Below, piece by piece: positions 1 through 20,000 of a DNA stretch of 20,000 nucleotides. The position numbers and the translations under genes were made by a program. The stretch covers positions 175,560 through 195,559 of the forward strand of contig JALDZX010000042.1 in the NCBI GenBank assembly GCA_022813865.1. The letters run 5' to 3'. The notes beneath the pieces were generated by a model. That model was not told where the DNA came from. It made no database searches and was given only the letters and a program-made list of their open reading frames with translations. Source of the stretch: Xylographa opegraphella (taxonomy: Eukaryota). How positions within the stretch are numbered: the first letter of the stretch is position 1; every line of letters begins with the position of its first letter.

Positions 1-58
1 CTTGTATTCTATCTATGTTTTTGTATTTTTGTACGCGCTGATCTAAATGCGTTTCAAG

Positions 59-1195
59 GCAACATCACAATGCTCTCGGAAGGTCGTGCTGGCATCGACG
101 ATTTGTATTCTTTAAAAGACGGCAAGTGCGCTATTGACCACAAGATCTTGATCGTAGGTGGATATATGCTAAATATATTCCTGCTATCATGTAGGTCAGC
201 TGCGACTTGAGCTGTCTCGTGAGATCTACGAGCGAGTCGGTCTTGTCGGACATCCGATCCGAGACACAGGTCGGAAGCACATGAAGACCAGATATGGTAC
301 ACTTCTTTCAGAGATAGCAACTGGTTATGCTCATGCTAAAGGAGAGATACAGCTATCGAGATCAACCTACGACTTCCGTCTATGCTTCACGGGAAGAAGG
401 GGTTCGAAAGGATAGTTTGGGCATTCAAGAATGTGCTGAATCGTTCTGTGAGTTGGCTATTCTACGACTTTAACACAAAGCTTGATTCTACTGTATCGGG
501 TCAGTAGGCTACCCAATTACCAGAACTATTGTGGTACAGTAATGCTTACCTGAAGAATTAACTTTAGAGAACCGACCGATCGACAGACATCACCCTATCA
601 CCAAAGCGTGTCAACTTACAACGAAGCATTTTGAAGTAGTCACCCCGCCACTAGCGCCATACGTAGGAACAAGAAACACCTCAGAAGATGCTGAAGATAC
701 CGACCTCGGGCTTCTCGAGTGGCTGGACTTTGTTGCGCTTGAGAGTCCTCGAGTACTGCCCGGTGATAGAGTCGACCCGTTTCTGTGTCAGTATGAAGTA
801 CCGAACAGCGATAGGGCGCGGCCGACTAAGATTACGATGCTATCGTGGCGGGGTTTCATGCCGGCAGAGTGGATCAAGAAGCTACATCTGGAGTGCTTGT
901 AAGTTTTTCTCTTGAATGGGGAACGAGTACATTAGACAGAATTCATGTGCTGAAATTTGAGACCAGTTGGGCTATCCAGAAGCAAAGCTCGGGATGGATC
1001 GCGCTGAGTGCGGGTGCCTTCAAGATGGAAGCCATTGATGGACCAGAGGGCTACGTCCTACTAACAATACCCTCTAGGAAGATAGGTGATAGCGATCATG
1101 AATCCGTTTCAATTGATGCTGGAACACTCCGGACACCTGTGTTGATGGCGTATACGCTATGGGAAATGACCAGTGGCCATGGTCGATCCTCATAG
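59..1195 (+). CDS. RPP40: Ribonuclease P/MRP 40 kDa subunit (Rpp40 family), 5'-partial; exons 59-121, 195-296, 353-499, 568-898, 967-1195
   Basis: Manual splicing gives a continuous frame: NITMLSEGRAGIDDLYSLKDG/QLRLELSREIYERVGLVGHP...KHMKTRY/AIEINLRLPSMLHGKKGFERIVWAFKNVL.../LLEWLDFVALESPRVLPGDRVDPFLCQYEVP...WRGFMPAEWI. These blocks match fungal Rpp40 as I recall it. Introns at 122-194 (GC-AG), 297-352, 500-567 and 899-966. The start lies upstream of the window. Confidence 0.88.
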
Positions 1196-1428
1196 ACTTA
1201 AGTTTGGGAGATTTGACCATCGTCGAGGGACATCAGCAACAATACTCTACAGGTTACTACGATTTGGCTGACAGCCAATGAAGAGGCTTCACGCCATTCA
1301 AGGTCCATCAGCGGCAATAACATACGGGTTACCCACGAGGCCAACCGCTAATGAAGAGGTTTCACACCAAACGTCACACAATTGTTTACTGAATCATCTG
1401 GAAGCGTGCGTTGTCCTATTATTGAGTG

Positions 1429-1457
1429 ATACTTATCCAATAAATACTTATCCAATA
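1429..1457. repeat. Short tandem duplication ATACTTATCCAATA x2
   Basis: Identical 14-mers at 1429-1442 and 1444-1457 in the convergent RPP40/DNA2 intergenic region. Confidence 0.85.
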
Positions 1458-1507
1458 TGATACCAGCCTCAAAAGATATTCCAGTTCCAATCGCACCCAA
1501 ACTCTTC

Positions 1508-4500
1508 TCATGTCGAGGCCTCGTTGAAGATATCCCTCATCACTGGTCTACTACCCAGTAATTGCCTTACATCCATCGTCCCCTTCTTTTCAGGGGTTTT
1601 CCGCTTGCCTGCACCTCTCCTGAGAGCGCTCCTATCTTCTCCTCTGACCTTCCCAGTTCTTTGTTTCACAGGTTCATCCTCATGGACCTTTACACTTGCT
1701 TGCGTCACCAGATCCTCAAAGAGATGCACCTCCAATGCGTTCTGCGCCAAATCGAACTTCCAGCCTTTCTCATCAATCAGCCCACAGAGTTTGCCTAGTA
1801 GCTCGCTGCCTTTCTTCATGGTATCCCAGCTCCCCACTATGAGCAGTTTTGTTCGCGCCCTTGTCAACGCAACGTTCACCCTTCTCCAGTCTTTCAACAA
1901 CTCACCCACGTTGCCCGTCTCGTTACTCCGCACCAGCGAGAGGACAACAACCTCCTTATCGCGACCCTGGAACCTGTCTGCGGTGTGCATTTCGACCCCG
2001 CTAGCTCCTTGGTTGTCTCTCGAAATAGAAGATTTTAGGCGAAGGTTCTGCTTGAGAAGCGCCAGTTGACTGCGGTAGAGCGTAATGACACCAATATCGG
2101 TAGCTTTCACGCCGACAGTGAGCAGAGATTCAACCAGCTGCGTCGTCACACTTGCTTCGATTGGATTGGTTATTCGCGAGCCATTCGCAATCTCGCGGGA
2201 TAGCGGGAAAAGCCGATCTGTGTTTATAAAAGCAACCTTGACTGCTGGGTCGAACAAGTCACGGATCCAGCATGCCCCGGGGTTAGCGGCCGGACAAAAT
2301 GCGGACGCTGTAGATGAAATAGTGGAAGGGGTGTAATGATGTGCGCACATTGCTGACATATCAGGTATAAAGATCTCGCTGTTTGCGACTTCAGAAGTGC
2401 CACACTTGAGACGGCCGTTGTAGATAAGAGTATTGCTCAATGTCATAATATCCTCGCACATGCGGTATTGGTGCTCAAGATTGACAACAGACAATGGATG
2501 TTTCTCGGACAGTAACTTGAAGAGACTGATGTCCAATCCTCCTTCCTGGGCCTCCCTGTTCTGCACAAGTGGAGGGAGTTGATAGTGGTCCCCAACAAGG
2601 ATGAAAGTTCTGGCCATTCGGATTGGACCAAGGCAAACGGGCAGCGTGATCTGCGATGCCTCATCGACAATACAGTAGTCAAAGATACGCTGATTGAATA
2701 TCGGATGGTTGATGCCGAGGCAAGTAGTGGCGACTACTTGGTTGCTGTACGATCTCTTTAGTTCTTCCACTGTAGTCTTCGGTACGGCGGCAAGATCTGC
2801 AAACTCTTGCACTTGAGAATGGACCTTAGCAACGGCACCCAGCCGAAGGACCCCGATCCCATCATTGCGGATCTTTAGAAGAATATTATCCACGGCCGTA
2901 TGCGTGTAGGAGGTGAGAAGGACACTTTTTCCTTGTGCTGTGAGAGCACGGATGATGTGCGCAATTGTGGTAGTTTTTCCGGTTCCTGGCATTCCAAGCA
3001 CCAGAGCATAATCCCTAGCACACATGACCTTCTCGATGGCGTTTCTCTGGCCAACGTTCAGACTCGATTGGCTAGCTGTGTCGAACGTCATGGGAGCAGC
3101 ATTTACGAAGGTTGGGGCGACGCCTTCGACAACCAGTTTCCGAAGTGCTTGCGCGCCAAATAGATCCAATTCCATGATGCGAATCAGATTGCTACGGACC
3201 ATTGCCATCCCGTTGCTAAACTCATCTTTGTCAAGTCTATATAAGACTGGTTCTTCCGGCTGCTGAGGCATCATCGTGGACTGATGGTCCCCTTCCTCCA
3301 CAATCTCCATGATACCTGAAAACGACTGGTTGGTTTCGGCATCAAAGCCCTTACTCCTAACTCGAACATTGTGAAGACGTCGGTCAACAGCAACAGTAAT
3401 ACGGTGCTTTCGGACATGTGTGACGTATCCATTCGCCAACGCAAAATGACCCTTCTCGTCGGATATCACGATGGGTTCGCCGATGGTGATCTGCGAATCT
3501 GTGAACGCAAATGTTGGCTGAGCCTTTTCTTTTATAAAAGAATAACGAAAGCGATTGATTTTGGGAGCATCCGTTAGCTCAACAGCAGAACCAGGCTCGA
3601 TTACGACGTTGCCAAAACATCTACCGACTCTTTCTCTTTCCGAGCTAAGCATTGTCCACAATTCTCTCCTGAATTTGAGCACGTCGGCTTCTTCTTTTGT
3701 CAAGAGGTCATCCCACTTCTTGAAGAAGTCTTGATGGATTGGTTGCAGATGACTCACAAGCTCATCAAACTTTTTGTTCATACCGCTCGTGGTCCCATTT
3801 CCATTGTCGACGAGCTTATGGTAGATGAAACAAGGAGTCTTTGCATAACATCGGCCGCAAAGATGGGGACTCTTCAGCATAGGAGGAAGTTCAAGCCGAC
3901 GACGAACATAACAGGCAAGCTCATTCCGTTGCATGATCATATGTCGTAACTCGTGCCGGATAGCTGGAATGCGGGAAATTTCAGAAGTTTCCATGTAATA
4001 CAGTATCCCGTAAGCAATCTGAACATCTATAATGCTACATTCAGCAACTATTAACATTCGACCGGACGAATTACTCACCGTATCTATCGGACAGCAGGAG
4101 TGTATATAGTGCGGTTTGAGCCTTATGAGCAGCATTCGAGTTGTTCTTACCTGTTTTGACCTCGAAAGGTACTGTGAGAGTCCTCTCCTCTTCGCCGTCT
4201 TTCATCAGAACTTGCACGGTGGCATCGACGTTGCCCTTGAGACCGTACATAGGTGACCAGACATGCTCCTCAACGTCTAAAAGCTTGTTGATACTCATGA
4301 GAGCCTGAGCACCGTTACGATCCTTGACTACAGCTTCATTCTGTATCTAGTCAGCAAATGACATCTATGTTGTTAGGAGAATCACGTACTCGGGGTCGGA
4401 CTGTAACAAATACTTCAGCCCATGACTGCAACTCTGGAACCTTGCTTGTGAGATGATCGACAGCTTTGGCCATGTCGACATTAATCTCGAAAAGTGTCTC

Positions 4501-6948
4501 CAAGTAGCGAGCTGCAATGACTTTAATTGTATGTGCCAACCAACTTGTATCCCAGCGGTTTGCTTTCATAGCCTCCTGAAAAATCTCATGCAGTATATGT
4601 CCATAGACTTGAGGCTCATTGGCTGCATTAGTAGCCTTGACTCTATCTTGCAGGACTGCTCGTCGTGTACAAGAGAATGAATCTGCCACGACCGTTGCCG
4701 ATATTAAATGATCAGGGTGCAGAATCAAGATGTGATGCGTATCATCAACAATGCACTGGCCATTCTTATCAAAAATGCCAAGAACATGAATGTACGAGCC
4801 TGGCGTACAGGGGCTATCGAACCACGACTGCCGTAGGATGACTACCTTGTTGGCTTTCGTTTTCTCTTCGACCACGAGCAATACCTTCGTTGATCAGTAA
4901 CTGACTTGAAGTGGAGCATGGATCATCACCTTTTCTGGACAAAGTTGGCCATTGTTGATTTGAAACTGGCCCGTCGCAACAGTCACGATTAGATAGCGCT
5001 GAATCGTTGAAAATTTGCTACCATTCTTCGTATAGATTTAGCAGCTATCTAGACGGCTGTATGTCAGACCTACATACGAGCGATGGAGTCGATATATCTT
5101 CTGCCTGAGCAGCACGAGCATAATCCTCAGCGATGTCTTCGAAATCAAATCCAGCACCAAACTCGTCGTCAGACACGAGATCAACAACTCCTTCCTTCTC
5201 TGTGCGCACGTCGGCTGTCAGATGTCTCCTCGTAGAAACATCTTGAGCTGGAAACTTCATTGCAGAGATCCCAGTGTCTGCAGATAGGGGAAAACGCTGA
5301 TCAAATTCAGCTGCTAGAGACACAAAACCCTCACCAAAAAAGTCGTCATACTCGTCATCAAATTCGTCCTGTTTAGACATCGATTCGTGTTCAGATGGTT
5401 TCTCAACTCGCGCCATATCTAGTAGTGTAGGCCCATCGGAGTTGAGTTCACCACGCTGGCGGGAGATATTCAACTTGGTTTCACGTGTTTCATGAACCAT
5501 CGGAGGACCATATAAATTGTCGGTTCCTGCTTGACACTCAACAGGCCGTGCATTAGTTTCGTCCAACGCATTTCCCACTATGACATCTGCTGGCGTTGTG
5601 GTACGTATGGTAGCATCGACTTCGTCAAGTAATTCTTCGTCAAACTCGTCGTCACCATAATCCGAGGAGGCCTTGCCAATTGTCTCGTCCTTCAACGGTT
5701 CGAATTTTTCGAGATCGTCCCGAACCTTGTTGAGCCTCGTGTGTTCTGTTGTATTCAGTCGAGTCCTGGCATCGGAGGACGAGATATGTATTACACTGAC
5801 CCGAGATTGTTCAATAGGCGAAGAAGGGAAAGCCGCATCCTGAATCCGAGCTAGTGCGGGGGGTGAAGAGCTGGGGCGGCGAGTCACTGTGGATTCTCCT
5901 TTATTTTCAATCAATCCATCATTTATCTTACCCAAGAGGAAATTCACTCTCGATGCTTTCAAATCACAATAAGATCTTACCATCCCACCACGGCTGATAT
6001 CTTTGGTTTGGTCCCCAATTTGACTCAGACTCTGGTGGATCTTTCGCCTTTTAGTTGCAGAAGTTGGCCACTCCATGCCACAACTCATAGTTCTCCTAAG
6101 ACCACTGTACTCAAGCCTATTGACATTCGGTGCTGGAGTTTGAGGTGATGATGTATGGAGAAGATTTGACGGAGACAATGCTGGAGGCTTGCTCGGTGTC
6201 TGATTTGATTTGGGATGTAGAGAATAACGGCTCCATAGGTCTTTCGCTGGGTCTACTTGAGGTGACATAAGAGATTTCTGAAGGGTCTGTGTATTAAATG
6301 GGGCTTTTTTGCTGGGAGATTGAAGGCCAGTAAGTTCTCCACGTGGTGAAGATTGCGGCGACGAACTTCGAGCTCGTTTCAAGCCCCGCTTTGTGAAGGG
6401 AGTGGCAAAATTGCTGGCAATGTCCATACTTGATTGGGAAAGATTCCACAAAACCCTTTCCACAGGCGTGAGTAGTGGTAATTGGTCAAATGTATCTTCA
6501 CCATTACCGATGAGTTCGGCAAGAGGAACTCTGCCTACAGGCGTTGCTGGGAAGGCGGTCTGAACATCGTTTGATGTCTTCTGGGATTCGTCTAAGGAGG
6601 ATTGCGGTTGTTGCTGCGATGCTTTGTGTTTGTGTGGCTTGCCCAACGATTTGTTCTCTTGCTCTTGACTACCACCAAAGAGCTCGTTATCCGACGGAGC
6701 GCCGCCATTGCCAGTGAATTCGAAGGCCTTGAGTTTTGTTCTCGATTGCGACGAGGCAGTTATTGGACGTGCAGACATATTCGGTTTAGTAGCGTGTGCT
6801 CCTCTGTTATCCGCATAGTTTGGTCGTTGTTTCTTCTGCCAGCGGCGACGGTACTTTTATGACTGTCAGATAGAGTATTTGGAGGATCTTCAACTGGACT
6901 ACTCACAACAGGTGACTGGTCAAAAAAGTTCTGCTGCTGGCTCGACAT
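1508..6948 (-). CDS. DNA2: DNA replication ATP-dependent helicase/nuclease Dna2, ~1729 aa; exons 6948-6907, 6853-5078, 5025-4930, 4884-4390, 4340-4079, 4026-1508
   Basis: The ORFs join through five short introns. The protein has a disordered S/P-rich N-terminus; nuclease motifs HPDHLISATVVADSFSCTRRAVL, GHILHEIFQ, EEHVWSPMYGLKGNVDAT and FEVKTG; Fe-S cysteines CGRCYAKTPC; and SF1 helicase motifs GMPGTGKTT, DEASQ, VGDHYQLPP, TADRFQGRD and RRVNVALTRA. Exon 1 and the exact boundaries of intron 2 are less certain. Confidence 0.96.
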
Positions 6949-6972
6949 CCTAGCGGGGCATCATCCTACGGG

Positions 6973-7007
6973 ACGCGACATGTTATGATCATTACGCGTG
7001 GACGCGA
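6973..7007. promoter_or_regulatory. Cluster of MCB-like (ACGCGW) cell-cycle boxes upstream of DNA2
   Basis: ACGCGA at 6973-6978, ACGCGT at 6994-6999 and ACGCGA at 7002-7007, within 60 bp of the DNA2 ATG. MCB elements bound by MBF are established regulators of G1/S replication genes in ascomycetes. Confidence 0.6.
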
Positions 7008-7426
7008 CTTGGAGCGCCGAAGTCACGTGCTGATTGGTTCCTTAGCCCAAATAGCAAAGTTTCTCTAGAATAGATATCGTGAAGTCAATGGATCTGGAAA
7101 GCTCAAAGCTAACCGCACGTGCTGCAGTGAATGTGCTTCTACTCCGTCATGCTTTACTACAAAATTGTCTTGAAGAAGCCGATGTTGTGCGGATTGGTCG
7201 GCAGAACCTACAGCCGATTGGCTGTCTGTACTTAGCGCTACATGAGGATTGAGTTTAGGCACTTCATGATTGCAGATACTCCGTAGTAAGATCTCAATAT
7301 TTTCAATATAAATTTTGGGTATTGCGCTTGTGCAGATATTCTAGAATCCCATACATCCGGCTTATTGGTGCTGCTATCTTCTGCAACTTCCAGGACACCC
7401 AATCTAGAGAAATCTAACGCGGCACT

Positions 7427-8541
7427 ATGAGTCAGGAGAAGCCGCTTCCCTTCATATACCAGTTCGCGGCGGGTGCCGTAGCTGGTGTATCGGAAGTATG
7501 TCACTTCACACGGCTTACCCTATGGACCATGTGCTGACTTTCAACGTGTAGATCCTTGTCATGTGAGAGAACTACTTTCCAACTGACCTCGAGAAGCCAA
7601 GCTAATGTTGCAACTAGGTACCCCTTGGACGTAGTGAAAACACGAGTGTAAGTGCGCTTGTGTCTTCGTAGCCTTCTTTGCTCAATATTTCGGGCAGACA
7701 GTTGCAGACTGGAAAAGGGGTGGGAGATGAATACTACAATGGCATGGTCGACTGCTTTCGAAAGATTATCAAGAATGAGGGTTTCTCAAGACTTTATCGA
7801 GGAATTTCTGCCCCAATCCTTATGGAGGCCCCGAAGAGGTATGGCTTAATCATATGACAAACCACGTTGCACGTCTTACAAGTCGTTAGAGCCACAAAGT
7901 TCGCCGCCAATGACGAGTGGGGCAAGGTCTACCGCAAGATGTTCGGCATCGCTAAAATGGACCAAAAGTTATCTATATTAACCGGGGCATCAGCGGGTGC
8001 AACGGAGGCGTTTGTCGTGGTGCCGTTCGAGCTTATCAAGATCAGGCTTCAAGATCGAGCCTCGGCTGGGAAGTACAACGGGATGATAGATTGTGTCGTG
8101 AAAACAGTCAGGGCAGAGGGGCCATTAGCACTCTATAACGGACTAGAGAGCACATTATGGCGGCATATATTGTGGAATGCGGGATACTTTGGTTGTATCT
8201 TCCAGGTCCGGGAACTCTTACCGAAGGCGTCGGGCAAGAGCGAACAGATCCGCAACGATCTATTGTCGGGAGCAACAGGAGGGACTGTTGGAACGATACT
8301 TAACACGCCTATGGATGTTGTCAAATCAAGGATTCAAAATTCGCCCAAAATTGCCGGATCAATACCCAAATATAATTGGGCTTGGCCTGCGATCGGGACG
8401 GTCATGAGAGAGGAGGGATTCGCAGCGCTCTACAAAGGATTCGTGCCAAAGGTGCTGCGATTGGGTCCAGGCGGTGGTATTCTTCTTGTAGTTTTTACGG
8501 GAGTGATGGATTTCTTCAAGAGCATGAAGAGTAACAATTAA
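7427..8541 (+). CDS. ODC1: Mitochondrial 2-oxodicarboxylate carrier (ODC1/ODC2 family, SLC25); exons 7427-7495, 7552-7562, 7618-7647, 7698-7838, 7890-8541
   Basis: Spliced product MSQEKPLPFIYQFAAGAVAGVSE/ILVM/YPLDVVKTRV/QLQTGKG...PILMEAPKR/ATKFAANDEWG... It carries three carrier signature motifs (PLDVVK, PFELIK, PMDVVK) and ODC-typical EAPKRATKF, WRHILWNAGYFG and PKVLRLGPGGG. Confidence 0.93.
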
Positions 8542-8868
8542 CAGTAATGATTGTTAACCGTATTATATCAGAACGTTGGTCACTTGTTACGTCGAATGTT
8601 TGATATCTCTCTTGTGATTAGCTGGCATATCCGCGTCGTTCGCGTCGGACTGTTCTAGGGGCGAGATCCACAGCATCAGAAGCTTAGGGGCCTGCTTCCT
8701 TCTAGATTGCGTCTTTAAAAGGCCGTGACAACAGGAAAGCATTCTCCCTCTCTCCTATCGATATGTTGACACTTTCGTGGAACTTTACGGGATCATCGCC
8801 CGGTCGTTCGTATGAGTCATTAGAGCTTGTTTGACTAATCTGCCTGAGGATCGATTGACACTCGGCTC

Positions 8869-9534
8869 TCAGCTCTTCCGCCTTCGAACCTCCCTCTCTC
8901 TATCCGATCCTACACCTCTAACAGCATCCTTGACCAAATCCCGCAAGTCTTGCTGACCTTGCTCCGCCTCGAAGTCGTCTCTTCTAGCCAATTCCTCGAT
9001 TCTTTTTCTGAACTCAGGGTCAGGTGTCTGATCGTTGCCATCTCCAGCATCAGCACTGTCTAACGTGCCTACGTTGATGGTAACATTTGGCGGTAGCGGT
9101 GGAAGGTGTTGAAAACCACTGCTTGTGGTACGGCTAGCATCGCTGCCTGACACGGTACGGATTCGAGCTTCCAAGAGATAGTCAGCTATTGTCGGGTAGT
9201 CTCCTTCCGCCCTGATCTTTTCCTCGGCTGTAACACCATCTGCATTTGTGATTGTCGGATCCGCATTCAGCTCGTCAAGAAGAACGTGTGCTGCTTCTAC
9301 TGTCTCAACGACGAACAGCGCCGTTTCTCCATCTTCATCGCGAATATTGACATCAGCCTTGAACTCGGCAACAAGGATTCTTAGAAAATCCAGGTGGTTG
9401 TACGACGCTGCAGCGTGCATACAAGAATAGCCGTGCTCATCCTGTGACAAGGCGAGCTCGGGCTTCGACCGTAGCAGAGGAAGAAGTTTTGGACTGTTGT
9501 CTGCTGCGAGCAAAAAGGGATTGGTCTGCGCCAT
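8869..9534 (-). CDS. Small ankyrin-repeat protein (YCR051W-like), single exon
   Basis: First ATG at 9534 (MAQTNPFLLAADN). Ankyrin repeats QDEHGYSCMHAAASYNHLDFLRILV and NIRDEDGETALFVVET; conserved-looking C-terminal DPEFRKRIEELA...LRDLVKDAV. Confidence 0.85.
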   Translation of the reverse strand: MAQTNPFLLAADNSPKLLPLLRSKPELALSQDEHGYSCMHAAASYNHLDFLRILVAEFKADVNIRDEDGETALFVVETVEAAHVLLDELNADPTITNADGVTAEEKIRAEGDYPTIADYLLEARIRTVSGSDASRTTSSGFQHLPPLPPNVTINVGTLDSADAGDGNDQTPDPEFRKRIEELARRDDFEAEQGQQDLRDLVKDAVRGVGSDREREVRRRKS

Positions 9535-9881
9535 ACCAGTTCTTTCGTCTGCAACGATCCCTCTTGGTCCGGAGCAAGTCGCGTTTCTGGCCCTTACGAA
9601 CCGTCGAGCTTGTGAAAGTCTCAAGACAGCTATGGCGTCATAGGGCTGTAGATTAGGACTGTAAACAATGAGGCGCTTCCGTATTGTGACACCGCTGGCT
9701 GAGTCACTCCATATGTTCGCAAATCTTTGCGGAAGGAGTCACTCGATTCTTCTCAAGTCGTCCAAAATGCCTTTTCTCTTATGTCAAATCTTGTAGCCTC
9801 GCTGTAGACAGAATCTCTTGTTTTGCAACTCACCATTTGAATCGTTCGCTCCTGCGCACACAGCTCTTCAGTTTCTCGACC

Positions 9882-12338
9882 ATGGCATCACATACCCGTC
9901 CCCCGTATGTACCACAAACCCCTCAGCATGTTGCGGATCTCCTCCTGAATCTCGAGGCCGGGATCAAGAAGAGCAGAGGCGGTTTCTCTTGTAAAAAGTC
10001 GACCTTCAAAGTTTCCTCGGCTCATGGCGTGACTGTGGACTCATGGCGCTTTTCGGACTGGGATTACAAGCGCGATGATTTACCAACTTATGCTCGCGGT
10101 TTTTTCACATACAGAACCAAACAAGGGACTCCTGAAATTGCAGTTAGAGGATACGATAAGTTCTTCAATGTTGGCGAAGTGAACGATACCCATTGGCGGA
10201 ACGTTGAGACCGGCACCAAAGGACCGTATGAGCTCAGCGTGAAGGAGAACGGATGCATTATATTCCTTGCAGGCCTCGAAGACGATGTACTGCTAGTGTG
10301 CAGCAAGCATTCTACGGGCCCAAGGCAGGACGCAGACCTGAGCCATGCTGTGGCAGGAGAAAAATGGGTCGACAAGCATTTGGCCGCCATTGGAAAGACG
10401 AGGCTAGATCTAGCACGAGAGTTGAGAAACAGAAATATCACCGCTGTTGCAGAGCTCTGTGACGACACGTTTGAGGAACACGTTCTTGCTTACGACGAAA
10501 AGTCAGCTGGTCTTTATATTCATGGTATGAATCTGAATCTTCCAGAATTTGTGACTTATCCAGGTCCATTGGTACATGAATTTGCGGATCAATGGGGATT
10601 CAAGAAAGCTGAGTATCTATTCAAGGACGACATAGAGACCGTCAAAACGTTTCTTGACGGTTGTGCAGAAACGGGTTCTTTTGAGGGGAAAGACACCGAG
10701 GGGTTCGTCATACGATGCCAAAAAAGCGTCGGTGGTAAGAGTGGCCCTTACGCTGATTGGTTCTTCAAATATAAGTTTGAAGAGCCATATCTATTGTACA
10801 GACAATGGCGCGAGTGTACAAAAGCCATAATTTCCGGAAGGGTTCCAAAGTACAAAAAGCACAAGAAGATCACAGAAGAATATCTGCTATACGCACGACG
10901 TCAACTTGCACAGAATCCGCAACTTGGAAAGGCATATAACGCTAATCATGGTATAATTAAAATGAGGGATGGGTTTCTGCAGGAACGTGGACTGAAAGCC
11001 TCCGATATCATTCGTGATGAGCGCTCCGAGGAACCGCTAACCGCTGATATCCTCCGCAATGTGGTTCTGGTTCCTATTGCCACTATTGGATGCGGCAAGA
11101 CAACTGTTGCCGTAGCCCTGACAAAGCTCTTTGGCTGGGGCCATATTCAGAATGACAACATAACTGGGCAGAAAGGGCGCCCCAAGCAATTCGCTATTCA
11201 GCTGTGCAACAGCATGGCACAGCATGCAGTCGTTATTGCGGACCGAAACAACCATCAGAAGCGAGAGCGGAAGCAAATAATTGACGATATATCCCAGGTT
11301 GTCCCCGATGTTCGATTTGTTGCACTTCATTACGTTCACGACCCAAAATCTCAAATGCTCCCCGAAATACGTAGAGTTACACGCGAAAGGGTACTGAATC
11401 GGGGGGACAATCATCAGACAATCCAGGCAGGATCGAAAGATCAGTCGGAAATAATTGGTATTATGAATGGCTTTCTGGATCGATTTGAGCCTCTTAACCC
11501 TGAGGCTGAGCCAGACAGCGGGTTCGACGAGGTAATCAACCTGGATGTTATAGAGTCCTCTCGTCATAACCTGGAAACTGTTGTCAATACCCTTCGTGCT
11601 GCCTATCCGAAGCTCATTCCGGAAGCACCTACGGCCATGGAACTCGACGAGGCAATAGCAGCGGCATTGGATGAATATCAGCCAGATATCAAGCATGATT
11701 TGAGTTTTCAATCAAAAAATAATAACAAGGGTCTCGGTGATGCACAGAGCTCCAATTGGCGTGAAAATCGGAGAATTGCTCAAGAACCAAAGTCAAAGTC
11801 GGACAAGATCGAATACTTTTGTCTTCGGGTCCCAACGACCCAAATTGTTTCAATCCTTGAATCAACATTTCGTTCGCAAGCCCCGATAGTGTCCAGATTC
11901 TATCATCAGCTGCAGCAGACTCGCCGTGTTCAGCCATCGTTTCACGTCACCCTCATTCACCGAAGTGCTATGCCTCAACATAAGGACCTCTGGCAGCGGC
12001 TCACTTCCCTACATATAGGTGCTTCGGCTTCCCAGAATCACATTGCAGAGCCAGTTTTGGGCAAATGCCGTGCCCAACTCGAAAGGGTAGTTTGGGACGA
12101 CCGGGTGATGTGCATCATTGCACGAATAGTGGATCAGCAATGGGAAAGTGTCAACACCGTCCCCCACGTGACGATCGGAACTGCTAGCCCGTCCATCAAA
12201 CCCAAAGAGAGTAACGACCTGCTATTACGGTGGTTAAACCATGGAGCAAGCGAAGAGACTGGTATTCACGATGTCTTACTCCTTGGGGAAGCTGACGTGT
12301 ATGGGGAGGTGAAGGCTGTGCTGCCCGGGACAAGGTAA
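9882..12338 (+). CDS. TRL1: Fungal tRNA ligase (ligase, polynucleotide kinase and cyclic phosphodiesterase domains), single exon
   Basis: Ligase motifs RGYDKFFN, ELSVKENGCII (motif I Lys) and EGFVIR; kinase P-loop IATIGCGKTT and ADRNNH; 2H phosphodiesterase motifs FHVTL and PHVTIG. First in-frame ATG at 9882. Confidence 0.96.
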   Translation: MASHTRPPYVPQTPQHVADLLLNLEAGIKKSRGGFSCKKSTFKVSSAHGVTVDSWRFSDWDYKRDDLPTYARGFFTYRTKQGTPEIAVRGYDKFFNVGEVNDTHWRNVETGTKGPYELSVKENGCIIFLAGLEDDVLLVCSKHSTGPRQDADLSHAVAGEKWVDKHLAAIGKTRLDLARELRNRNITAVAELCDDTFEEHVLAYDEKSAGLYIHGMNLNLPEFVTYPGPLVHEFADQWGFKKAEYLFKDDIETVKTFLDGCAETGSFEGKDTEGFVIRCQKSVGGKSGPYADWFFKYKFEEPYLLYRQWRECTKAIISGRVPKYKKHKKITEEYLLYARRQLAQNPQLGKAYNANHGIIKMRDGFLQERGLKASDIIRDERSEEPLTADILRNVVLVPIATIGCGKTTVAVALTKLFGWGHIQNDNITGQKGRPKQFAIQLCNSMAQHAVVIADRNNHQKRERKQIIDDISQVVPDVRFVALHYVHDPKSQMLPEIRRVTRERVLNRGDNHQTIQAGSKDQSEIIGIMNGFLDRFEPLNPEAEPDSGFDEVINLDVIESSRHNLETVVNTLRAAYPKLIPEAPTAMELDEAIAAALDEYQPDIKHDLSFQSKNNNKGLGDAQSSNWRENRRIAQEPKSKSDKIEYFCLRVPTTQIVSILESTFRSQAPIVSRFYHQLQQTRRVQPSFHVTLIHRSAMPQHKDLWQRLTSLHIGASASQNHIAEPVLGKCRAQLERVVWDDRVMCIIARIVDQQWESVNTVPHVTIGTASPSIKPKESNDLLLRWLNHGASEETGIHDVLLLGEADVYGEVKAVLPGTR

Positions 12339-12596
12339 TTGGGTGATGGAAGACTGGTTCATGGAAAGACCTAGTGGAATGCCATTATGATAGATGACGT
12401 GTATGATACAAAAGTTGGGGTTAAAAAAGTTTATGCTTGATTGATAGCTTGGTTCGTGTAGAATAGGTCCTGATTCGTCCCTGGAAATACCGCGTTGATC
12501 GCACTCATAGTCAATTCTTGATAATTCAGTATCTTCAGGTTTGATAAAATCCTTTTTCACCCAATTGTTGCAACCTGTACCCCCCTTCAGCACCAA

Positions 12597-14427
12597 ATGG
12601 GTACCGTGCCCTTGTCTGTAATGCCGGCAGAGGAAATCCTGGAGCATTACCTCGAAGACTACGAGACTCTGACTCGAAGCGATGCCTGGAGTCTCTACGT
12701 CTCCCATGCGCTGTCCACATGGAATGCGAGATCATACGAGTTCGCTGCAGTAGGCAGAATCGTGGCTGATGTGATATGTTGCTGATTTCGTGACAGATTC
12801 TCTTCACAGCAGCAGCATTTCCCAACACTCTTCTTGCATCTTCTGTCAGGTTGGGTCACTCACGCAGAGTGGTAAATTGCTTCGTAGCTAGAGTCTTACA
12901 TATCACAGAGGTCTTTGCAATACAATCGCTGCACTATGCCTCTCTTCGTGGATCGGCATACAGATCGACGAGTCCCATTCCAGACTCCACACCCTTCTGC
13001 TTACCATTTCAACTAACAGGGCATCTGTGATACTGGCTTGCTTTGGATGGTATTTACTTCTGAGGCTTGGAAGTCCGACAAGCCCTTCAAGCTCTTTAGA
13101 ACTTACGGCATCACGACCCGCAACGAGTCCAGAGCATGTGTTGTCATGGTGGCTCTTCGCCTTAGTGATCGTGCTTGGTATCCTCGAAAAGCTCAGTGGT
13201 ATTGGCAACATGATCTGCATGGAAAGAGACTGGGTCCCTACCCTGGCGACTACCTCCAGTGAAGATATACAGCACAAATTCCCCCTCACCCACCTCAATG
13301 CGGTAATGCGCCGGATTGACCTGCTGTGCAAGCTAATATCGCCACTCATTATCTCAGTGGTAATTATAGTCACCTCTACACCTGGGGGCATTGTGCTTGT
13401 GGGCCTCATGAGTACCATAAGCTGGATTGTAGAAGTCTACTGTGCACGGCGAGTCTGGAATTCATGTGGCCGTCTTCGAAAACGGGAAGTGGAGCAGCTG
13501 AATGTGGCCGCCGGAGGAACATCGTTCAGAAGTAAACTCAAAAGCAATTATCGGATGCTGAATGGTTGCTTGAAACAGTGGTCCCAGATTGCGGACTATT
13601 TCTCTACTGATGTCTGGGTTCCGTCACTATCGCTTGCACTACTACATGTTTCTGCGCTGTCTTACTCTGCAACATTTGTCACATTTTGCTTGAACAGTGG
13701 GTTCTCTTTGTTGGTCATAACAATTGCAAGAGCCGCGGGAAGTGTCGTCGAGGTCTCAAGCACTTTCATTACCCCTATTGGTGTCAACCGTCTCGCTACT
13801 TCTAAAGGGAATTGTGACCAGACAGAGGATGACCAAGGACTTCTGGATAGCATTGACCCGAGGAAGCTAAAGGAGCACTCCATAGGTCTGGCACGCAGCG
13901 GTCTTTGGGGCATTATTTTGCAGCTTGTGACTTTGGTCAGCCCAGGCCCTCAGCTTGTTTGCTGTTGCTGACACCTTCAGGTACCGGTCGTGTGTGCGAC
14001 ATGGTACCTCACGGGCCACGAATCTCCAGGCCATCTTGATATCTTGTCCCGCTTCCTGCCTTTAGCCTCTCCGTTCGCCTCGCGCCTATTTCCCGCTGTG
14101 GTCATGTTCACCTTCCTGTCACTCTCTCGCCTTGGGCTTTGGGTCTTTGACCTCACAACCCAAGAGATTACACAGACGGGAGTCCAAAGCCGAATACGAT
14201 CGTCCTTCGCAGGGATCGAAATGGCATTCGTGTCGTTCTTCGAGCTGAGCCAGTGGCTTCTTGCAGCTGTTGTTTCACGTCCGGAGCAATTCCACTGGCT
14301 GGCTCTGGGTAGCCTTGGAGCGGTGCTGTGCTCGACTTGCATGTATGCGTGCTGGGTCAGGGGACAGCGAGGCCATTTGACGCACTGGGATCGGCTGGGG
14401 CAGGCTTGCTATCGCGCGAAGGCTTAG
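12597..14427 (+). CDS. FPN1: Ferroportin-family (FPN1/SLC40A1-like) iron-regulated transporter, ~559 aa; exons 12597-12749, 12797-12849, 12909-13935, 13981-14427
   Basis: Spliced frame LYVSHALSTWNARSYEFAA/ILFTAAAFPNTLLASSVR/G... with family-type motifs MERDWVP, LNAVMRRIDLLCKLISP and LSRLGLWVFDLTTQEITQ, plus many hydrophobic helices. Alternative ATG at 12621. Confidence 0.88.
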
Positions 14428-15260
14428 GGCTGACTTGATCAGGTCAGCTGCGGTCTTGACTTTTGAGAGGTGATACCTTGATTTAATTCTTGAATGTCGT
14501 ATGAACGGGCCCCGAAAGTCCTGAGGCAGAACTGGAAGGGGGCCCAGCGGAAGAAGTATAAGATTCTCGGGCATTCAATGCTTTACAGGCCGTCGTACAT
14601 ATTTTCCCGCTGTCAAGGCCGCCAGCATCCCAAGGTAGCCTCCGTGAAGGATGTGTGACGAAGACGAGCCGCAGCGAGCGATCGCGTGTCTGACCTGGTC
14701 CCGACGTATTCGCCGAATGAACTTGGGAACGGCTTCCTCCAGAGGCTTCGGCTCAACCGCCGAGAAACGCAGACCTGCTGGTCTATTGATGGCGATGCGC
14801 CCTTGGAGCTGAGGCCGTGTTTATCGACAGTCTAGGAATATTGCTCTGTTGATGATGTTTGTCACGACTCCAGGACAAATGAACATTCGTATCACTGTAC
14901 GAACCAAAAACAGAATCGAAGTTTTAATACACTTTACAATTCCAACAAGCAAAGGTTATCATTAGGTATTCGATTGTCATTCTACCGGAATCATAAGTTC
15001 GTTATTTCATGTCTCGAGCGGCCCAGCAAACGTAGCCAGTGCATGCAAGCATTCATCAAACACGCCAGTCTTCAGTATAGTATAGCAGCATGGGCAGCAT
15101 GGCTTCCGCAGCATCCTTTGGCCCTACCTTTCGAGCGAAAAATGTCTCTGATCTCTCCATGGCAGTTGCCTTATATCTCCCTTCTCTCCATGCTCCCCAT
15201 ACCATCAGGTACGCATGCCTATCGGTCCAATCATGTGCCTCTCAAGCCGTGATTGCGGGT

Positions 15261-17042
15261 TCAGTATCTCATGGGTGGCAGTCCCATCGGAGGAGGAGGC
15301 AGCCCACCCGCAGAGTACGGGTTGCCATCGTTGTATCTCGGACCATAAGTATCGATATATCTTCGGTTCAAGTCTGGCTCCGAGTTGCGGTAACTCCCCG
15401 CTCCCCCGTGCTGGAGGCGTTCCTGCTTCGCACGCCGTTTCTGCCTCTTCTCATCAAGCTCTTCGCACGTTTTGTGGTACTCTTCGCGCTGTTCCTTCAT
15501 CTCTTTCCATTCACTATAAGCACCCTTGATTCCAAGTGCGGCAATCCCAACACTGGCGGCGTCTTGAAGGTAACCTTTCCTCTTGAGCTTCTCCTCTTCC
15601 TCCTTGCTAATCTTGCCTGCTGCGAACTGTTCCTTGCGCTTCTCACGCTTCTCTCTAGTTTGATAAATACTATGGGCAGCGTGAATGGTCGCAACCGTAG
15701 CCAAGCCTGCCGTGACCAACTCCTTCGTGTGCATTTTCTTTTGCTTCTTGATCTCTTCGTCCGACGAGTAGTCCGTCGAACTGTCGTGCTCTCGGTACTC
15801 TTCCCCACCACCGCCACGCGGACGAGGAGCATAGCCATCATCATACCCTCGTGGACTCTGACGTGAGACCCGATCGTCATATCCTCTTCGACTGCGGTCA
15901 TTCTCTCGACGCTCCTTGCGTTCCTTGTCCTCGCTGGTGTCGATACCGATGGCTGCCTTGCCCTTGTCGAGCCCTCGAGTGATGAAGGCTGACACGCTAT
16001 TGCTCCGTCTCCGTGGGGGACTGCGACTGTCATCCGAGTCATACCCTCGACCCCGGTCTTTAGACTTGTTCCGGTAGTTATTGAGCGCTTGGCCTGCGAG
16101 AGCCGCAAGACCACCAGCAGCCGCAAGGCCACCGAGACCGGGTCCGTTGTCGTCCTTTCGACCGTTGCGTCCCCGAGATCTTGACCTCGATCGTGCTCCG
16201 TTGATCAAGCGGTTGCCCGCTAAGCCTCCCAGAGCAGCTTCAATGGTGTGTCGAGTGCTGTGGTGACCTGGATCCTTGTCAATCGCTCCATCAATGCCTG
16301 CGGCCCCGATCGCAGCCGTCAACACCCGTTTGCCCTGAGCGGCAAAACCTCCGGGCTCATTGCGCGACCGAAAGGCTTCCACTGCTCCTGCGGCCAACGC
16401 TGCCTTGACAGCCTGCTGGATTTTCTTCGACCCGTCATCAGAGCGAGACCGCGATCGTGAGCGGGAGTCTCCACGACCGCTGCGACTTCGAGCTCGTTCC
16501 CGATGCCCTCTGGACGATGCGGCACCAGCGGCGCCTCCAAGCCCTAGCGCTGCGAGGGCCTGCTCACCAAGGGACTTACGACGTTGCCGGGGTGGACTTT
16601 CCGACTCCGAATCGGAATCATAGCGGCTACGTCTGCTCGCTGTACCGCCGTGCTTGAGTCAGCAGTTATCAACATCGTAGACTCGGCAGATGTTACCTCT
16701 ATCATCGCGCCGGCCGCTCCGCCTTCCGCCTTCGGACCGCCTCGAGTTGCCATAACGGTCATCATTGTATGAATGCTCGACCGAGCGCGCACGTGGGGCG
16801 CCGTACTTGTCGCGAACAGTGGTGCGACGGTAGACATTCGCACCCTCGCCTGGAGCGAAGTCACGTCGGACTTCCTCCACGGACGAGACACTATCGTCAC
16901 GCGGCCGTCTCACCAGGTCCATCTGGCGCTGAGGTCGGCTGCTCCGGGTCTCGATGACTTCGTCCTCTTCATAGACAGGACGACGGGACTGGTGATGTGA
17001 TCTGTGCCGCCTGGGCGGATCGTCATCGTAGTAACTTCCCAT
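15261..17042 (-). CDS. DUF3824-type fungal RS/D-rich protein, ~574 aa; exons 17042-16697, 16639-15261
   Basis: A GTAACA...CTGAC...CAG intron at 16696-16640 joins the 127-aa ORF in frame to the upstream extension of the 378-aa ORF. Characteristic blocks RRKSLGEQALAALGLG, IQQAVKAALAAGAVEAFR, KELVTAGLATVATIHAAH and LQDAASVGIAALGIKGAYSEWKE. Confidence 0.8.
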
Positions 17043-18243
17043 GCTTGCTTCTTGCTGGTTCGCACGTGCAGGATAAGGCCGTAAGACGCTCGAGCGTTCG
17101 TGCTAGTCAATGTGTGGAGCAGACGAGGTCAATGCACTTCGAGTTCGGCGACTGCAATGTGAATCGAGGCTTCTGGTGAATTCCTCGAACGTGATCGAGA
17201 GTCGTGACCGAGCAGTGTTGGTCGAATGCGGCGGAGTATGATCTGGGTTTCTGGGATTTCTGGTCGCGAAAGATTGTCGGCTGGGTTTTGTTTTATGGCA
17301 GCGCAGCGAGGGTTCGGCCGAGTGTTGGGGTTGGTTTGATAGCTGCAGCGCTCCGTGTTAGGGATGTCACAGACTAGAATAGAAGCGGGGAAGCGATGTC
17401 AAGCACGAGTGAATGGAAAGAAAGAGCACGTTGGAGGTTGAGGGTGTCCACAATATTCATTACAATCGTTGGTCTTTTGGAAGGAGAAAGAAAGGCGTCG
17501 GGCGGATCGGAAGAGGAAGAGGAAGAAGGCAGGGAAGAGTGATGTGACTTGGCACAGGCGCATGTGGCTGGAGCGAGAGAGAGAGGGCACGTCACCGGTA
17601 CTGCACCCGTGGACCGGCTAAGGTAGCGTGTGGTGGGTGATCGGAGCTTCAATCGAATTCACCTCCGTTCCACTTCAACTCGATCAGGAATGAATTGCCA
17701 ATTATGGCGCAGAACATGGCTGCCTCAGCATGTTGACCCGCTGTGATGTGACACACGCGCCGCAGTGATTCCTCAGATACGGAGCATCGGTTCTGTGAGT
17801 TTCGGTGGAGACAAGGCCTGATACTCCACCCCGTGTCGCCCGTGCCTCCGTGCTCCGACACGCACCGAAAAGCCCCGCCCCGCCACTAAAAAGGCTTGTT
17901 TCTCCCCGCGACGCCCCGCTCATTCGGGCGACGGATGGCCTGTGACTGAAGCCCTTCGCTCCGTTGGCCCAATCTTCTCCTCCGTGCACGCTGCAGTGAA
18001 TCGCGAGCACGAAGCAGTCCCAGCCGACCACGGACTCCACACTTGCGAAGAGCGGCGGACATTCGAATACTTAAGCACGAGGATGGCCCAGCTTTCCTCC
18101 ACCACGATGAGGCCGACCCTAAAGAGAAACGTGGCGGCGTCGACAACGTCATCAATCTCAACTGTTCATGTTCGAGAGCTCGATGGCTTCTTCGTTGGGC
18201 TTGCAATACTTGACCGCAACAAACTGGACCATCTCTTTCTGTG

Positions 18244-19386
18244 ATGTCCTTCAACAATACCAACACCGACATCCTCGTGGTATGCTCCATTTCACGTCTT
18301 CACAATCGGTGTGCTGACACGCAGCTCTAGGCCGGTGCCTTTGCTGCATTCTCCGTTGACCTCTTAGTGTATCCGCTCGATACCATCAAGACCCGCGTCC
18401 AGTCCCCTGACTACAAACGCCTGTATACAAATGCTTCCACAAACACCATCAACCGATCCTTGTTCCGAGGGTTGTATCAAGGTATTGGCAGTGTCGTCAT
18501 CGCAACGGTCCCGTCATGTAAGAGAGGCAGCTCCATTGATTCCTGTCAACAACCCACTGACTTCGAGTGATAAGCGGGCGCTTTCTTCACCACATACGAG
18601 GGGACCAAAAGCCTCCTGCATCGCCTCAATCCTTCGGTTGGCACAAACGGCTCACCGATGATCCCCACGCCATTCATTCATTCCGCCGCTTCGTCCGTCG
18701 CGGAGCTGGTCTCTTGCTTCATCTTGACGCCCGCCGAGGTCCTGAAGCAAAATGCACAGGTGGTGCAAAAATCGGCATCTGCCTCAACGCAAGCCTTCGA
18801 CGGCAACGCAACCATCCAGGCCATACGGAAGTTCAATAAGCCAAGCCAGTTGTGGAGAGGTTACACCACCCTCGCGGCAAGGAATTTGCCCTTCACCGCC
18901 ATGCAATTCCCCATGTTCGAGCACCTGAAACAGTCGATCCTATCCTACCGACAGCAGCACGGGCTGGCTCGCTGGACTCTGCTGGAGAAAGGCCTGATCA
19001 CCGCTCTCTCCGCTGGTACTGCAGGCTCAATCGCGGCTGTCATCACGACCCCAGTTGACGTGGTGAAGACACGGATCATGCTGAGCGCGGCCGTCGAGAA
19101 GGGTGTGGAATGTGGTCGGGGCACGCAAGCGCGGACGCAAGCCGAAACCCAAGGCAAGGATGGTAACGTCGAATGGAAAAAGGCTCAGCGCACAGCACCG
19201 GCTGGTCGATCCGGAGGCCTCGCGGTCGGCCAAGAGATACTGCGAACCGAGGGTCTCAAAGGCTTGTTCCGAGGAGGTAGCCTCCGAGCTGTCTGGACCG
19301 CGCTGGGAAGCGGGTTGTATCTGGGTGTTTACGAGACCGGCCGCACTTATCTGGAGGAACGAAGGGACACGGAGAGGGTCATTTAA
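18244..19386 (+). CDS. Mitochondrial carrier protein (SLC25), S-adenosylmethionine carrier (SAM5/PET8)-like; exons 18244-18279, 18331-18517, 18575-19386
   Basis: Spliced MSFNNTNTDILV/AGAFAAFSVDLLVYPLDTIKTRVQS...VPS/SGAFFTTYEG..., with signatures PLDTIK, PAEVLKQ and PVDVVKTR, and RNLPFTAMQFPMFE resembling SAM-carrier helix 4. The substrate is inferred only. Confidence 0.85.
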
Positions 19387-19574
19387 TACTGAGTTACGAT
19401 CGATCATATTGACTTTATACACCACTTTGTCCTACTTGACCTGCTTCCCGTACATATTCTCACTGCTATCTTCGTGAATCGTGACCGTTCGCAGTTTATC
19501 AGTTACATTCAGTCAGATCTTTGGTTTTTGTACATATGCATTATGAATATTTGTTCGAGTCGAAAGGATACTGA

Positions 19575-19850
19575 GGCCTTGTATACATTATATATGAAAG
19601 AGTAGATCTGAAGCAGACCACGGCGCTTGCGCCGAAACTGGCGGTGCTGGCCCTGATAGCAATGAGAGTCTGCTATCAATTAAACAAAAAATTGCATACC
19701 TATAATAACTGGCCGATGTCATTGTGGTTTGTGGAGAGTTTCCTGTTAAACCTTGAATACCGAGTGGGCACCCTACGAGCCCAGCACACTGCAGCTGAAC
19801 GGGAACGATTAGTGGCAGAGTTTAACGACTTCAATTCGTTCATCCAGGTT
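19575..19850 (+). pseudogene. Truncated fragment of an SNF2-like (SF2) helicase C-terminal domain, broken by the telomere
   Basis: Stop-free frame after the TGA at 19572: GLVYIIYERVDLKQTTALAPKLAVLALIAMRVCYQLNKKLHTYNNWPMSLWFVESFLLNLEYRVGTLRAQHTAAERERLVAEFNDFNSFIQV. The order PKL...K-(motif IV-like)-W...ER..LV..FN....IQV follows the HELICc layout of SNF2 proteins and ends just before motif V. Recognised by eye. Confidence 0.7.
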
Positions 19851-19940
19851 CAGGTTCAGGTTCAGGTTCAGGTTCAGGTTCAGGTTCAGGTTCAGGTTCA
19901 GGTTCAGGTTCAGGTTCAGGTTCAGGTTCAGGTTCAGGTT
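19845..19940 (+). repeat. Perfect (CAGGTT)16 array, equivalent to a TTCAGG variant telomere-like repeat
   Basis: Directly visible: 96 bp, 16 perfect CAGGTT units (15 full TTCAGG units at 19849-19938). Confidence 0.97.
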
Positions 19941-20000
19941 AGGGTTAGGGTTAGGGTTAGGGTTAGGGTTAGGGTTAGGGTTAGGGTTAGGGTTAGGGTT
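19941..20000 (+). repeat. Canonical telomere repeat (TTAGGG)n; right chromosome end
   Basis: Ten perfect AGGGTT units running to the end of the window, with the G-rich strand oriented 5'->3' toward the end as expected for a telomere. TTAGGG is the standard Pezizomycotina repeat. Confidence 0.95.

Follow-up and report, generated by a model that had tools for sequence, protein, structure and literature searches.

A terminal relic of an SNF2-family ATPase gene joined to telomere repeats through a CAGGTT array

At one end of the 20,000-nucleotide stretch of Xylographa opegraphella DNA analysed here (the window), a reading frame without a stop codon runs directly into terminal repeats. Is this frame the remnant of a gene, of which gene, and how did it come to stand at the end of a chromosome?

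A stop-free frame before two terminal arrays

On the forward strand, a TGA at 19572-19574 directly precedes a stop-free frame that starts at 19575; its 92 codons (19575-19850) continue into (CAGGTT)16 and then into (TTAGGG)n, and no stop is met in this frame as far as the window end at 20000. The translation from 19575 reads GLVYIIYERVDLKQTTALAPKLAVLALIAMRVCYQLNKKLHTYNNWPMSLWFVESFLLNLEYRVGTLRAQHTAAERERLVAEFNDFNSFI, then QV, and then the repeats. An initial annotation of this DNA had pointed to a stop-free frame of about 92 codons, missed by the open reading frame (ORF) track and reading into the repeats, and the frame was verified at these coordinates; an ORF listing displays it only when open ends are permitted (19644..20000, open at the 3′ side). 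With 48 stop-free runs of at least 90 codons in the six frames of the window, the length of the open frame alone carries little evidential weight.

Unique sequence extends to 19844 and repeats follow. Tandem Repeats Finder delimited two arrays on the forward strand, both with 100% matches: a perfect hexamer array of 16.0 copies, (CAGGTT)16 or equivalently (TTCAGG)n, at 19845..19940, and canonical telomere repeats, (TTAGGG)n, at 19937..20000, recorded as (GGTTAG)x10.7. The G-rich telomere strand is oriented 5′ to 3′ toward the window end, as in a right-hand telomere.

On the proximal side, the nearest gene encodes a mitochondrial carrier and has short introns (18244..19386, forward strand; gene start and intron positions inferred by eye). 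Its last exon ORF, 18658-19386, matches Mito_carr in Pfam (E 3.4e-27) and ends with a stop at 19384-19386, 188 nt before the start of the stop-free frame, in good agreement with the distance of about 190 bp proposed in the initial annotation. The AT-richer spacer that follows (19387..19595, forward strand; 38% GC over 19387-19574) has no homology detectable by family HMM, tblastn, Pfam or Rfam and presumably holds the 3′ flank of the carrier gene. Neither Pfam, applied to five small ORFs on both strands of 19103-19843, nor Rfam, applied to 19200-20000, assigned any part of this region to a family (for Rfam, no match at E ≤ 1).

Homology to SNF2-family ATPases

Searching 1.84 billion representative proteins with the peptide by phmmer returned 49 matches at E ≤ 1e-3, one of them at E ≤ 1e-10. 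The best match, P0002, aligned with 63% identity over residues 43-88 (E 2.1e-11). A Pfam scan of 25 of the 49 relatives found Helicase_C and/or SNF2-rel_dom in 18 and no Pfam family in the other seven, all of them short; in the seven long relatives scanned (711-1441 aa), SNF2-rel_dom is followed by Helicase_C. When the 49 relatives, including seven of 1123-1441 aa, were compared with the window by tblastn, every one of them matched one and the same frame at about 19590-19844, and nothing else in the 20 kb was matched below E 0.001. A family HMM built from 33 relatives, with the window excluded, gave the frame 89.9 bits, with an E-value of 6e-29 when six sequences were searched, and scored all the remaining five frames of 19001-20000 below 0 bits. 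A further search, starting from P0002, led to a full-length relative, P0052 (1242 aa, with SNF2-rel_dom), to which BLASTP aligned the window peptide with 49% identity over 79 residues (E 4e-24), covering residues 850-928 of P0052.

More direct searches returned little. The initial annotation had proposed a comparison of the peptide with the Helicase_C model (PF00271), and this comparison gave no support: the Pfam scan of the 90-aa peptide contained no Helicase_C row at E ≤ 10, its only entry being Ribosomal_L11_N (E 0.26), and phmmer against PDB sequences retrieved only an olfactory receptor (E 0.56); both matches were taken as noise. The direct Pfam match is absent because only about half of the Helicase_C domain is left, and detection of the homology needed the full-database phmmer search together with the family profile. 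Among longer proteins, a word-index search found none with the peptide and one weak match (E 7.5e-4) with the family alignment. A language-model look-up of the peptide led to Helicase_C clusters with scores of 0.80-0.89, which, lying below 0.9, serve as a lead only; for the relative P0012, the nearest cluster is one named 'Snf2 family helicase', commonest in Ascomycota. A pattern search of metagenome contigs with the family alignment yielded 263 pattern matches with no relative among them.

The peptide was modelled with AlphaFold from the family alignment, of which the model is hence not independent; its pLDDT is 83. In a VIA search of 48,161 chains, performed without Foldseek, the 12 best rows were all SNF2-family ATPases (SWR1, p400/TIP60, CSB, ISW1, CHD4, the Sulfolobus SWI2/SNF2 core, Fun30, Chd1 twice, a second TIP60, SNF2h and Rad5), with middling Z-scores of 6.2-7.3, below 8. 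The model superposed on lobe 2 of SWR1 with Z 7.3 and an rmsd of 2.1 over 81 residues; by Foldseek, for which all E-values were above 1, it superposed on Fun30 with a TMq of 0.70 and an rmsd of 1.2 over 67 columns. The case for an SNF2 identity is carried by the sequence evidence.

Judged by its homologues, the frame is a piece of an SNF2-type Helicase_C domain and not a chance frame; the initial annotation had read it in this way, and the domain content of the relatives, the phmmer E-value and the profile score uphold that reading. The many long stop-free runs and the failure of the direct Pfam, PDB and word-index searches might raise the suspicion that the frame, in the 3′ flank of the carrier gene, is open by chance and resembles helicase motifs by coincidence; this reading is refuted by the 49 consistent phmmer matches, by the score against an HMM built without the window and by the alignment to full-length P0052, and we assign it practically no probability. 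The annotation value of the result is that a real gene relic had been missed both by ORF finders, since it has no stop codon, and by Pfam, since half a domain is left.

By sequence comparison, the parent gene falls within a divergent clade of fungal SNF2 ATPases that are as yet uncharacterised. Ascomycota SNF2-family ATPases (P0052, 1242 aa; P0012, 711 aa; and P0030, P0034, P0035, P0036, P0039 and P0042, 1123-1441 aa) are 42-49% identical to the window over the surviving 79 residues. A clade signature, SPKL...C....RKL[LI][VI]F..WP..W.VE.FL.NLGF.V..IR..H...ER......FNDP....Q[VI]LVTS, is common to the window and these relatives. The Ascomycota proteins possess the SNF2 N-lobe and motifs V-VI, whereas the window has about 85 codons and carries H-T-Y in place of [LI]-[VI]-F. 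Solved SNF2 remodellers (yeast Snf2, 6iy2/5x0x; ISW1; Rad5; SWR1; Fun30) are matched by the relatives of the window at E 1e-12 to 1e-17, and the fragment model superposes on their lobe 2, but no close orthologue is found among them; even the best solved relatives of the family (Rad5, ISWI and Snf2) reach only E 1e-12 to 1e-17.

Most of the proteins P0002-P0050 are short pieces of 83-360 aa, and many of them end 6-30 residues past the part aligned with the window. This points to ORFs called at exon size on eukaryotic contigs, or else to a family with many broken copies. Of the 61 aligned positions at which P0052 differs from P0002, 38 are makeable by C>T/G>A changes alone in the direction of P0052 and 2 in the reverse direction, and P0052 contains 1.3% glycine and 1.5% proline as against 4.5-5.7% in P0012, P0030 and P0036. 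P0052 looks like a degenerate copy of the type left by repeat-induced point mutation (RIP), yet heavy RIP would hardly be expected to leave a frame of 1242 aa open. Because RIP acts on duplicated DNA, the pattern is a hint of a repeat copy, and the SNF2 lineage of P0052 may be repetitive in some other fungus.

Extent and preservation of the relic

As delimited by phmmer, the family HMM, MAFFT and motif mapping, the relic comprises about 85 codons (19596..19850, forward strand) out of roughly 1100-1450 and represents the N-terminal half of the second RecA-like lobe (Helicase_C), corresponding approximately to residues 850-928 of the 1242-aa P0052. Its parts are, in order, the SPKL helix, the motif IV strand, the WP..W.VE.FL.NL helix, a strand R-A-x-H, the helix ER...V..FND, and I-Q-V. 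The family HMM alignment begins at 19617, at HMM position 84 of 219; upstream of this point, the HMM finds no match in the six frames of 19001-20000, though the profile has 83 more positions. MAFFT extends a plausible match to 19596, where E-R-V-D-L of the window falls on D-R-x-x-M of the family. The carrier gene is the proximal limit of the relic and lies outside it; the 5′ breakpoint lies at the distal edge of the spacer, at about 19572-19617.

The distal boundary was mapped by a chain of alignments from the window through P0012 to yeast Snf2 (6iy2_O). The window aligns ungapped to P0012 residues 426-504, with FNDFNSFIQV on FNIPSSPIQI of P0012. In turn, t-k-l-l-v-f of P0012 aligns on h-r-v-l-I-F of Snf2 (motif IV), e-r-d-e-v-v-k-a-f-n on ERSELLRLFN, and i-q-i-l-v-t-s-l-r-v-g-a-t-s-s-n-l-q on LCFILSTRAGGLGLNLQ (motif V); the Snf2 motif VI, QAQDRAHRIGQ, aligns with P0012 further downstream. 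The chain thereby puts KKLHTY of the window on motif IV and its terminal I-Q-V at the start of motif V (ILSTRAGGLGLNLQ in Snf2). Native sequence ends at I-Q-V, residues that straddle the beginning of motif V, and the mid-domain cut at motif V that the initial annotation had placed here is thus borne out, as is its statement that the N-terminal ATPase half is missing: tblastn of the 49 relatives revealed no SNF2 N-terminal ATPase lobe (motifs I-III) and no further SNF2 homology in the 20-kb window. Motif V (LVTS..x..NLQ) and motif VI (QA.GR..R.GQ) are likewise not in the window, where I-Q-V is the last of the coding sequence before the repeats. Relative to P0052, about 850 codons are missing proximally and about 314 distally. 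Lacking motifs I-III, V and VI, the relic cannot be an active ATPase.

What survives is well preserved. Within the 85 codons there is neither a frameshift nor a stop, and the relic bears no RIP signature (substrate index of 1.21-1.26, not RIP-like). In the motif IV strand, the window reads K-L-H-T-Y as against K-L-[LI]-[VI]-F in the family; none of 48 relatives has H41 or T42, and 2 of the 48 have Y43, which hints at decay. Leave-one-out HMM scoring over 78 shared columns gave 91.0 bits for the relic and 64.9-120.7 bits (median 100.05) for 44 relatives, 10 of which score below the relic; the choice of relatives by their likeness to the window flatters the relic in this comparison. Five residues of the relic are unseen in any other row, within a family range of 1-14. 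The overall divergence of the relic is not unusual, and it is not obviously decayed. Its inactivation may be recent, or the relic may be under some constraint; the good preservation, together with the perfect array, suggests that the events at this chromosome end are not ancient.

The CAGGTT array and the origin of the chromosome end

When the 49 relatives are aligned to the family profile, the first CAG of the array falls in a column that contains Q in 21 of 45 relatives, the commonest residue, and the first GTT in one that contains V in 24 of 43, again the commonest, and I in 12. In the next column, L is present in 37 of 44 relatives and the window has the Q of the second CAGGTT unit; P0002 and P0052 read V-Q-I-L-V at this place and P0012 reads I-Q-I-L-V. 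Because the first unit encodes Q-V, the commonest residues of the family at these columns, the array is read as having grown from codons of the gene: on the protein alignment, the best reading is that the first CAGGTT belongs to the native coding sequence and that the array was amplified from it. No CAGGTT array exists elsewhere in the window; there are 15 overlapping matches, all at 19845-19940, against 0.08 expected. The assertion of the initial annotation that the frame reads straight into the repeats holds insofar as terminal repeats cut the gene, and needs amending insofar as (CAGGTT)16 intervenes between the gene and TTAGGG.

The array is telomere-like, as TTCAGG and TTAGGG are identical in phase at 4 of 6 bases. 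At the switch from one to the other (...CAGGTT/AGGGTT...), GGTT is common to both, and TTAGGG begins in phase after the last GGTT. Correctly oriented terminal repeats thus meet the non-telomeric DNA at a short match of telomere-like sequence. Short matches such as GGTT are the kind of site at which telomerase can prime in de novo telomere addition. A telomerase that templates TTAGGG cannot write TTCAGG, and we count this against the explanation favoured below. The exact TTCAGG-to-TTAGGG junction had 0 matches in metagenome contigs. In the available portions of open-access papers and bioRxiv preprints, we found no TTCAGG block at a fungal telomere; TTCAGG occurred in plant and other contexts, and its matches in one paper were to the 7-mer TTCAGGG.

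Starting from the observed homology, relic extent, absence of the other motifs, repeat structure and junction phase, we consider it likely that 19596-19850 is the non-functional relic of a fungal (Ascomycota-type) SNF2-family ATPase gene, with local truncation and healing on its distal side. The gene is read toward the chromosome end, and that end is probably healed. From the comparison with protein homologues we infer both the break with its healing and the nature of the 5′ event, along with the order and mechanism of the steps; the array would be telomere-like enough to have favoured healing at this place. On the distal side, a terminal deletion would have removed motifs V and VI together with the tail, which amount to about 314 codons by P0052, and all that lay beyond. 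The native CAGGTT hexamer would then have been amplified by slippage or a similar copying process, with unequal exchange or rolling-circle copying as further candidates; the L-V that follows Q-V in many relatives would have provided a near-repeat if its codons resembled CTGGTT. Finally, the terminal GGTT, able to pair with the TTAGGG template, may have been the priming site for telomerase; the end is now capped by (TTAGGG)n.

Since about 850 proximal codons, including the whole N-lobe, are missing, a second event is needed to place the fragment about 210-230 nt past the carrier stop; this could be a deletion or the acquisition of a piece by joining or capture. A simple break in an intact end-directed gene would keep the 5′ part, which is absent here, and thus either two events or one capture event are called for. 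In the former case, the proximal 2.5 kb would have been lost in addition to the terminal truncation with array growth and telomere addition; in the latter, a broken end past the carrier gene would have acquired an already truncated tip (telomere capture) or a filler fragment.

A parallel exists in the de novo addition of telomeres at telomere-like internal sites (yeast SiRTAs; neotelomeres), in that the repeats start at GGTT in a telomere-like tract and distal sequence is lost. The difference is that the tract here is a perfect 96-nt hexamer array that is apparently coding-derived. SiRTAs are described as telomere-like internal sites of de novo telomere addition in yeast (PMC7018233).

The genes retained on the proximal side bear on the history of this end. 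Pfam identified a Dna2 (AAA_11/AAA_12, Dna2 and Dna2_Rift domains) in reverse-strand ORFs 1508-4135 and 4351-4881, a carrier at 7867-8541, an ankyrin protein at 8869-9624, a three-domain fungal tRNA ligase at 9837-12338 on the forward strand and a ferroportin-like protein at 13027-13971. ORFs of 171-577 aa without a Pfam family at E ≤ 0.001 lie at 5045-6778 and 12903-13418 (reverse strand), 15090-15866 (forward strand) and 15261-16397 (reverse strand). A repeat search of 1-19850 returned only short, chance-level pairs, with no repeat families or transposon DNA. Intron signals recognised by eye, like the cluster nearest to P0012, indicate an ascomycete. Dna2 and tRNA ligase, both essential in yeast, stand about 8-18 kb from the telomere without subtelomeric repeats; this unusually 'core' chromosome end fits a healed terminal deletion. 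In the 577-aa ORF, three diverged copies of a 35-nt motif are present at 5137, 5314 and 5620.

The alternative that survives best is that a break distal to the carrier gene was repaired by copying, or by joining on, the tip of another chromosome end that already bore the truncated SNF2 gene, the array and the telomere, so that one event of telomere or filler capture would have produced both boundaries. The abrupt 5′ boundary, with HMM matches from position 84 of 219 and nothing upstream in any frame, is in keeping with capture, as is the preservation of the relic within the family range, expected for a recent copy; the remaining 20 kb, which are unique, gene-dense, housekeeping in content and repeat-free, may likewise belong to a young chromosome end. 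Among the public sequencing runs searched, only one (X1) contains the stretch, and its contigs include a single record on 16000-19868 at a likeness of at least 80%, with no diverged donor to be seen; this argues against capture, although weakly, as identical copies would collapse in a 31-mer assembly. We hold capture to be unlikely, and local truncation with healing remains the reading that we prefer.

A second alternative concerns the role of the array in this healing. Rather than an ordinary microsatellite, (TTCAGG)16 could be a healing intermediate in its own right: the terminal CAG GTT would have been copied reiteratively, by a rolling circle or by slippage, at an uncapped end until telomerase was able to extend it, yielding a 'seed-amplified' neotelomere. 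This is quite unlikely in our estimation. Within the accessible text of open-access papers and bioRxiv preprints, no neotelomere seeded by an amplified local hexamer or microsatellite was found; if true, the seed-amplified neotelomere would be a way of making filamentous-fungal chromosome ends for which that same body of text contained no description. The relic is an ordinary dead gene fragment at a chromosome end with one curious detail, the array. This coding-derived telomere-like array is the new detail and the one point of wider interest; if independently confirmed, it would be a natural example of non-telomeric sequence turning into a telomere-addition seed in a filamentous fungus.

The initial annotation had further entertained a multicopy telomere-linked SNF2-type helicase element, of which the fragment would be the tip, by analogy with the RecQ-type telomere-linked helicase (TLH) genes. 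Its premise that the classical fungal TLH genes are RecQ-like and not SNF2-like agrees with the abstract of a preprint on TLH genes, which describes RecQ helicases (bioRxiv 10.1101/2024.02.27.582403). TLH genes occur at several chromosome ends. The likeness lies in a helicase-superfamily gene adjoining terminal repeats. The window, by contrast with these RecQ-type genes at several ends, contains an SNF2-type fragment without a second copy in the X1 contigs, and its relatives carry SNF2-rel_dom and no RecQ domains. The resemblance of P0052, the closest full-length relative, to a RIP-mutated repeat copy and the many short fragments among the database relatives would suit a multicopy element; the single X1 record at 80% likeness or more, the window free of repeat families and the relic free of a RIP signal do not, and the idea found no support from them. 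The searchable parts of open-access papers and bioRxiv preprints also yielded no fungal telomere-linked SNF2 family. We regard such an element as very unlikely.

Last, the join itself could be a sequencing or assembly artefact, with the CAGGTT array as miscalled TTAGGG or the terminal 270 bp as a chimeric join. Miscalls of telomere repeats are known from nanopore data, which counts for an artefact; the motifs of these miscalls differ from TTCAGG, which counts against it. Assembled by a different assembler, an X1 contig of 91,988 nt is identical to the window over 16000-19868, with 0 differences and a mean word depth of 165. Its end lies 6 nt past 19868, after 30 nt of the array, which is how a 31-mer graph behaves when it meets a tandem array that exceeds its word length. 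X1 may be the source data of the assembly and in that case is not independent, so that its agreement excludes a mis-join by one assembler and not a flaw in the data. The second assembler nevertheless takes the same path into the array, and the first unit of the array matches the Q-V expected of the gene; an artefact is, in our view, highly improbable. An RNA run containing the stretch was not among the public sequencing runs searched.

Two further runs from the same study as X1, X2 and X3, contribute nothing over 19354-19868 and, within 16000-19336, only short pieces that fall on coding parts. The X2 contigs on 16167-19336 are 209-691 nt long, have depths of 2.5-5.6 and differ from the window at many positions (15 in 114 nt and 17 in 95 nt, for example); a related fungus may be present in the X2 sample.
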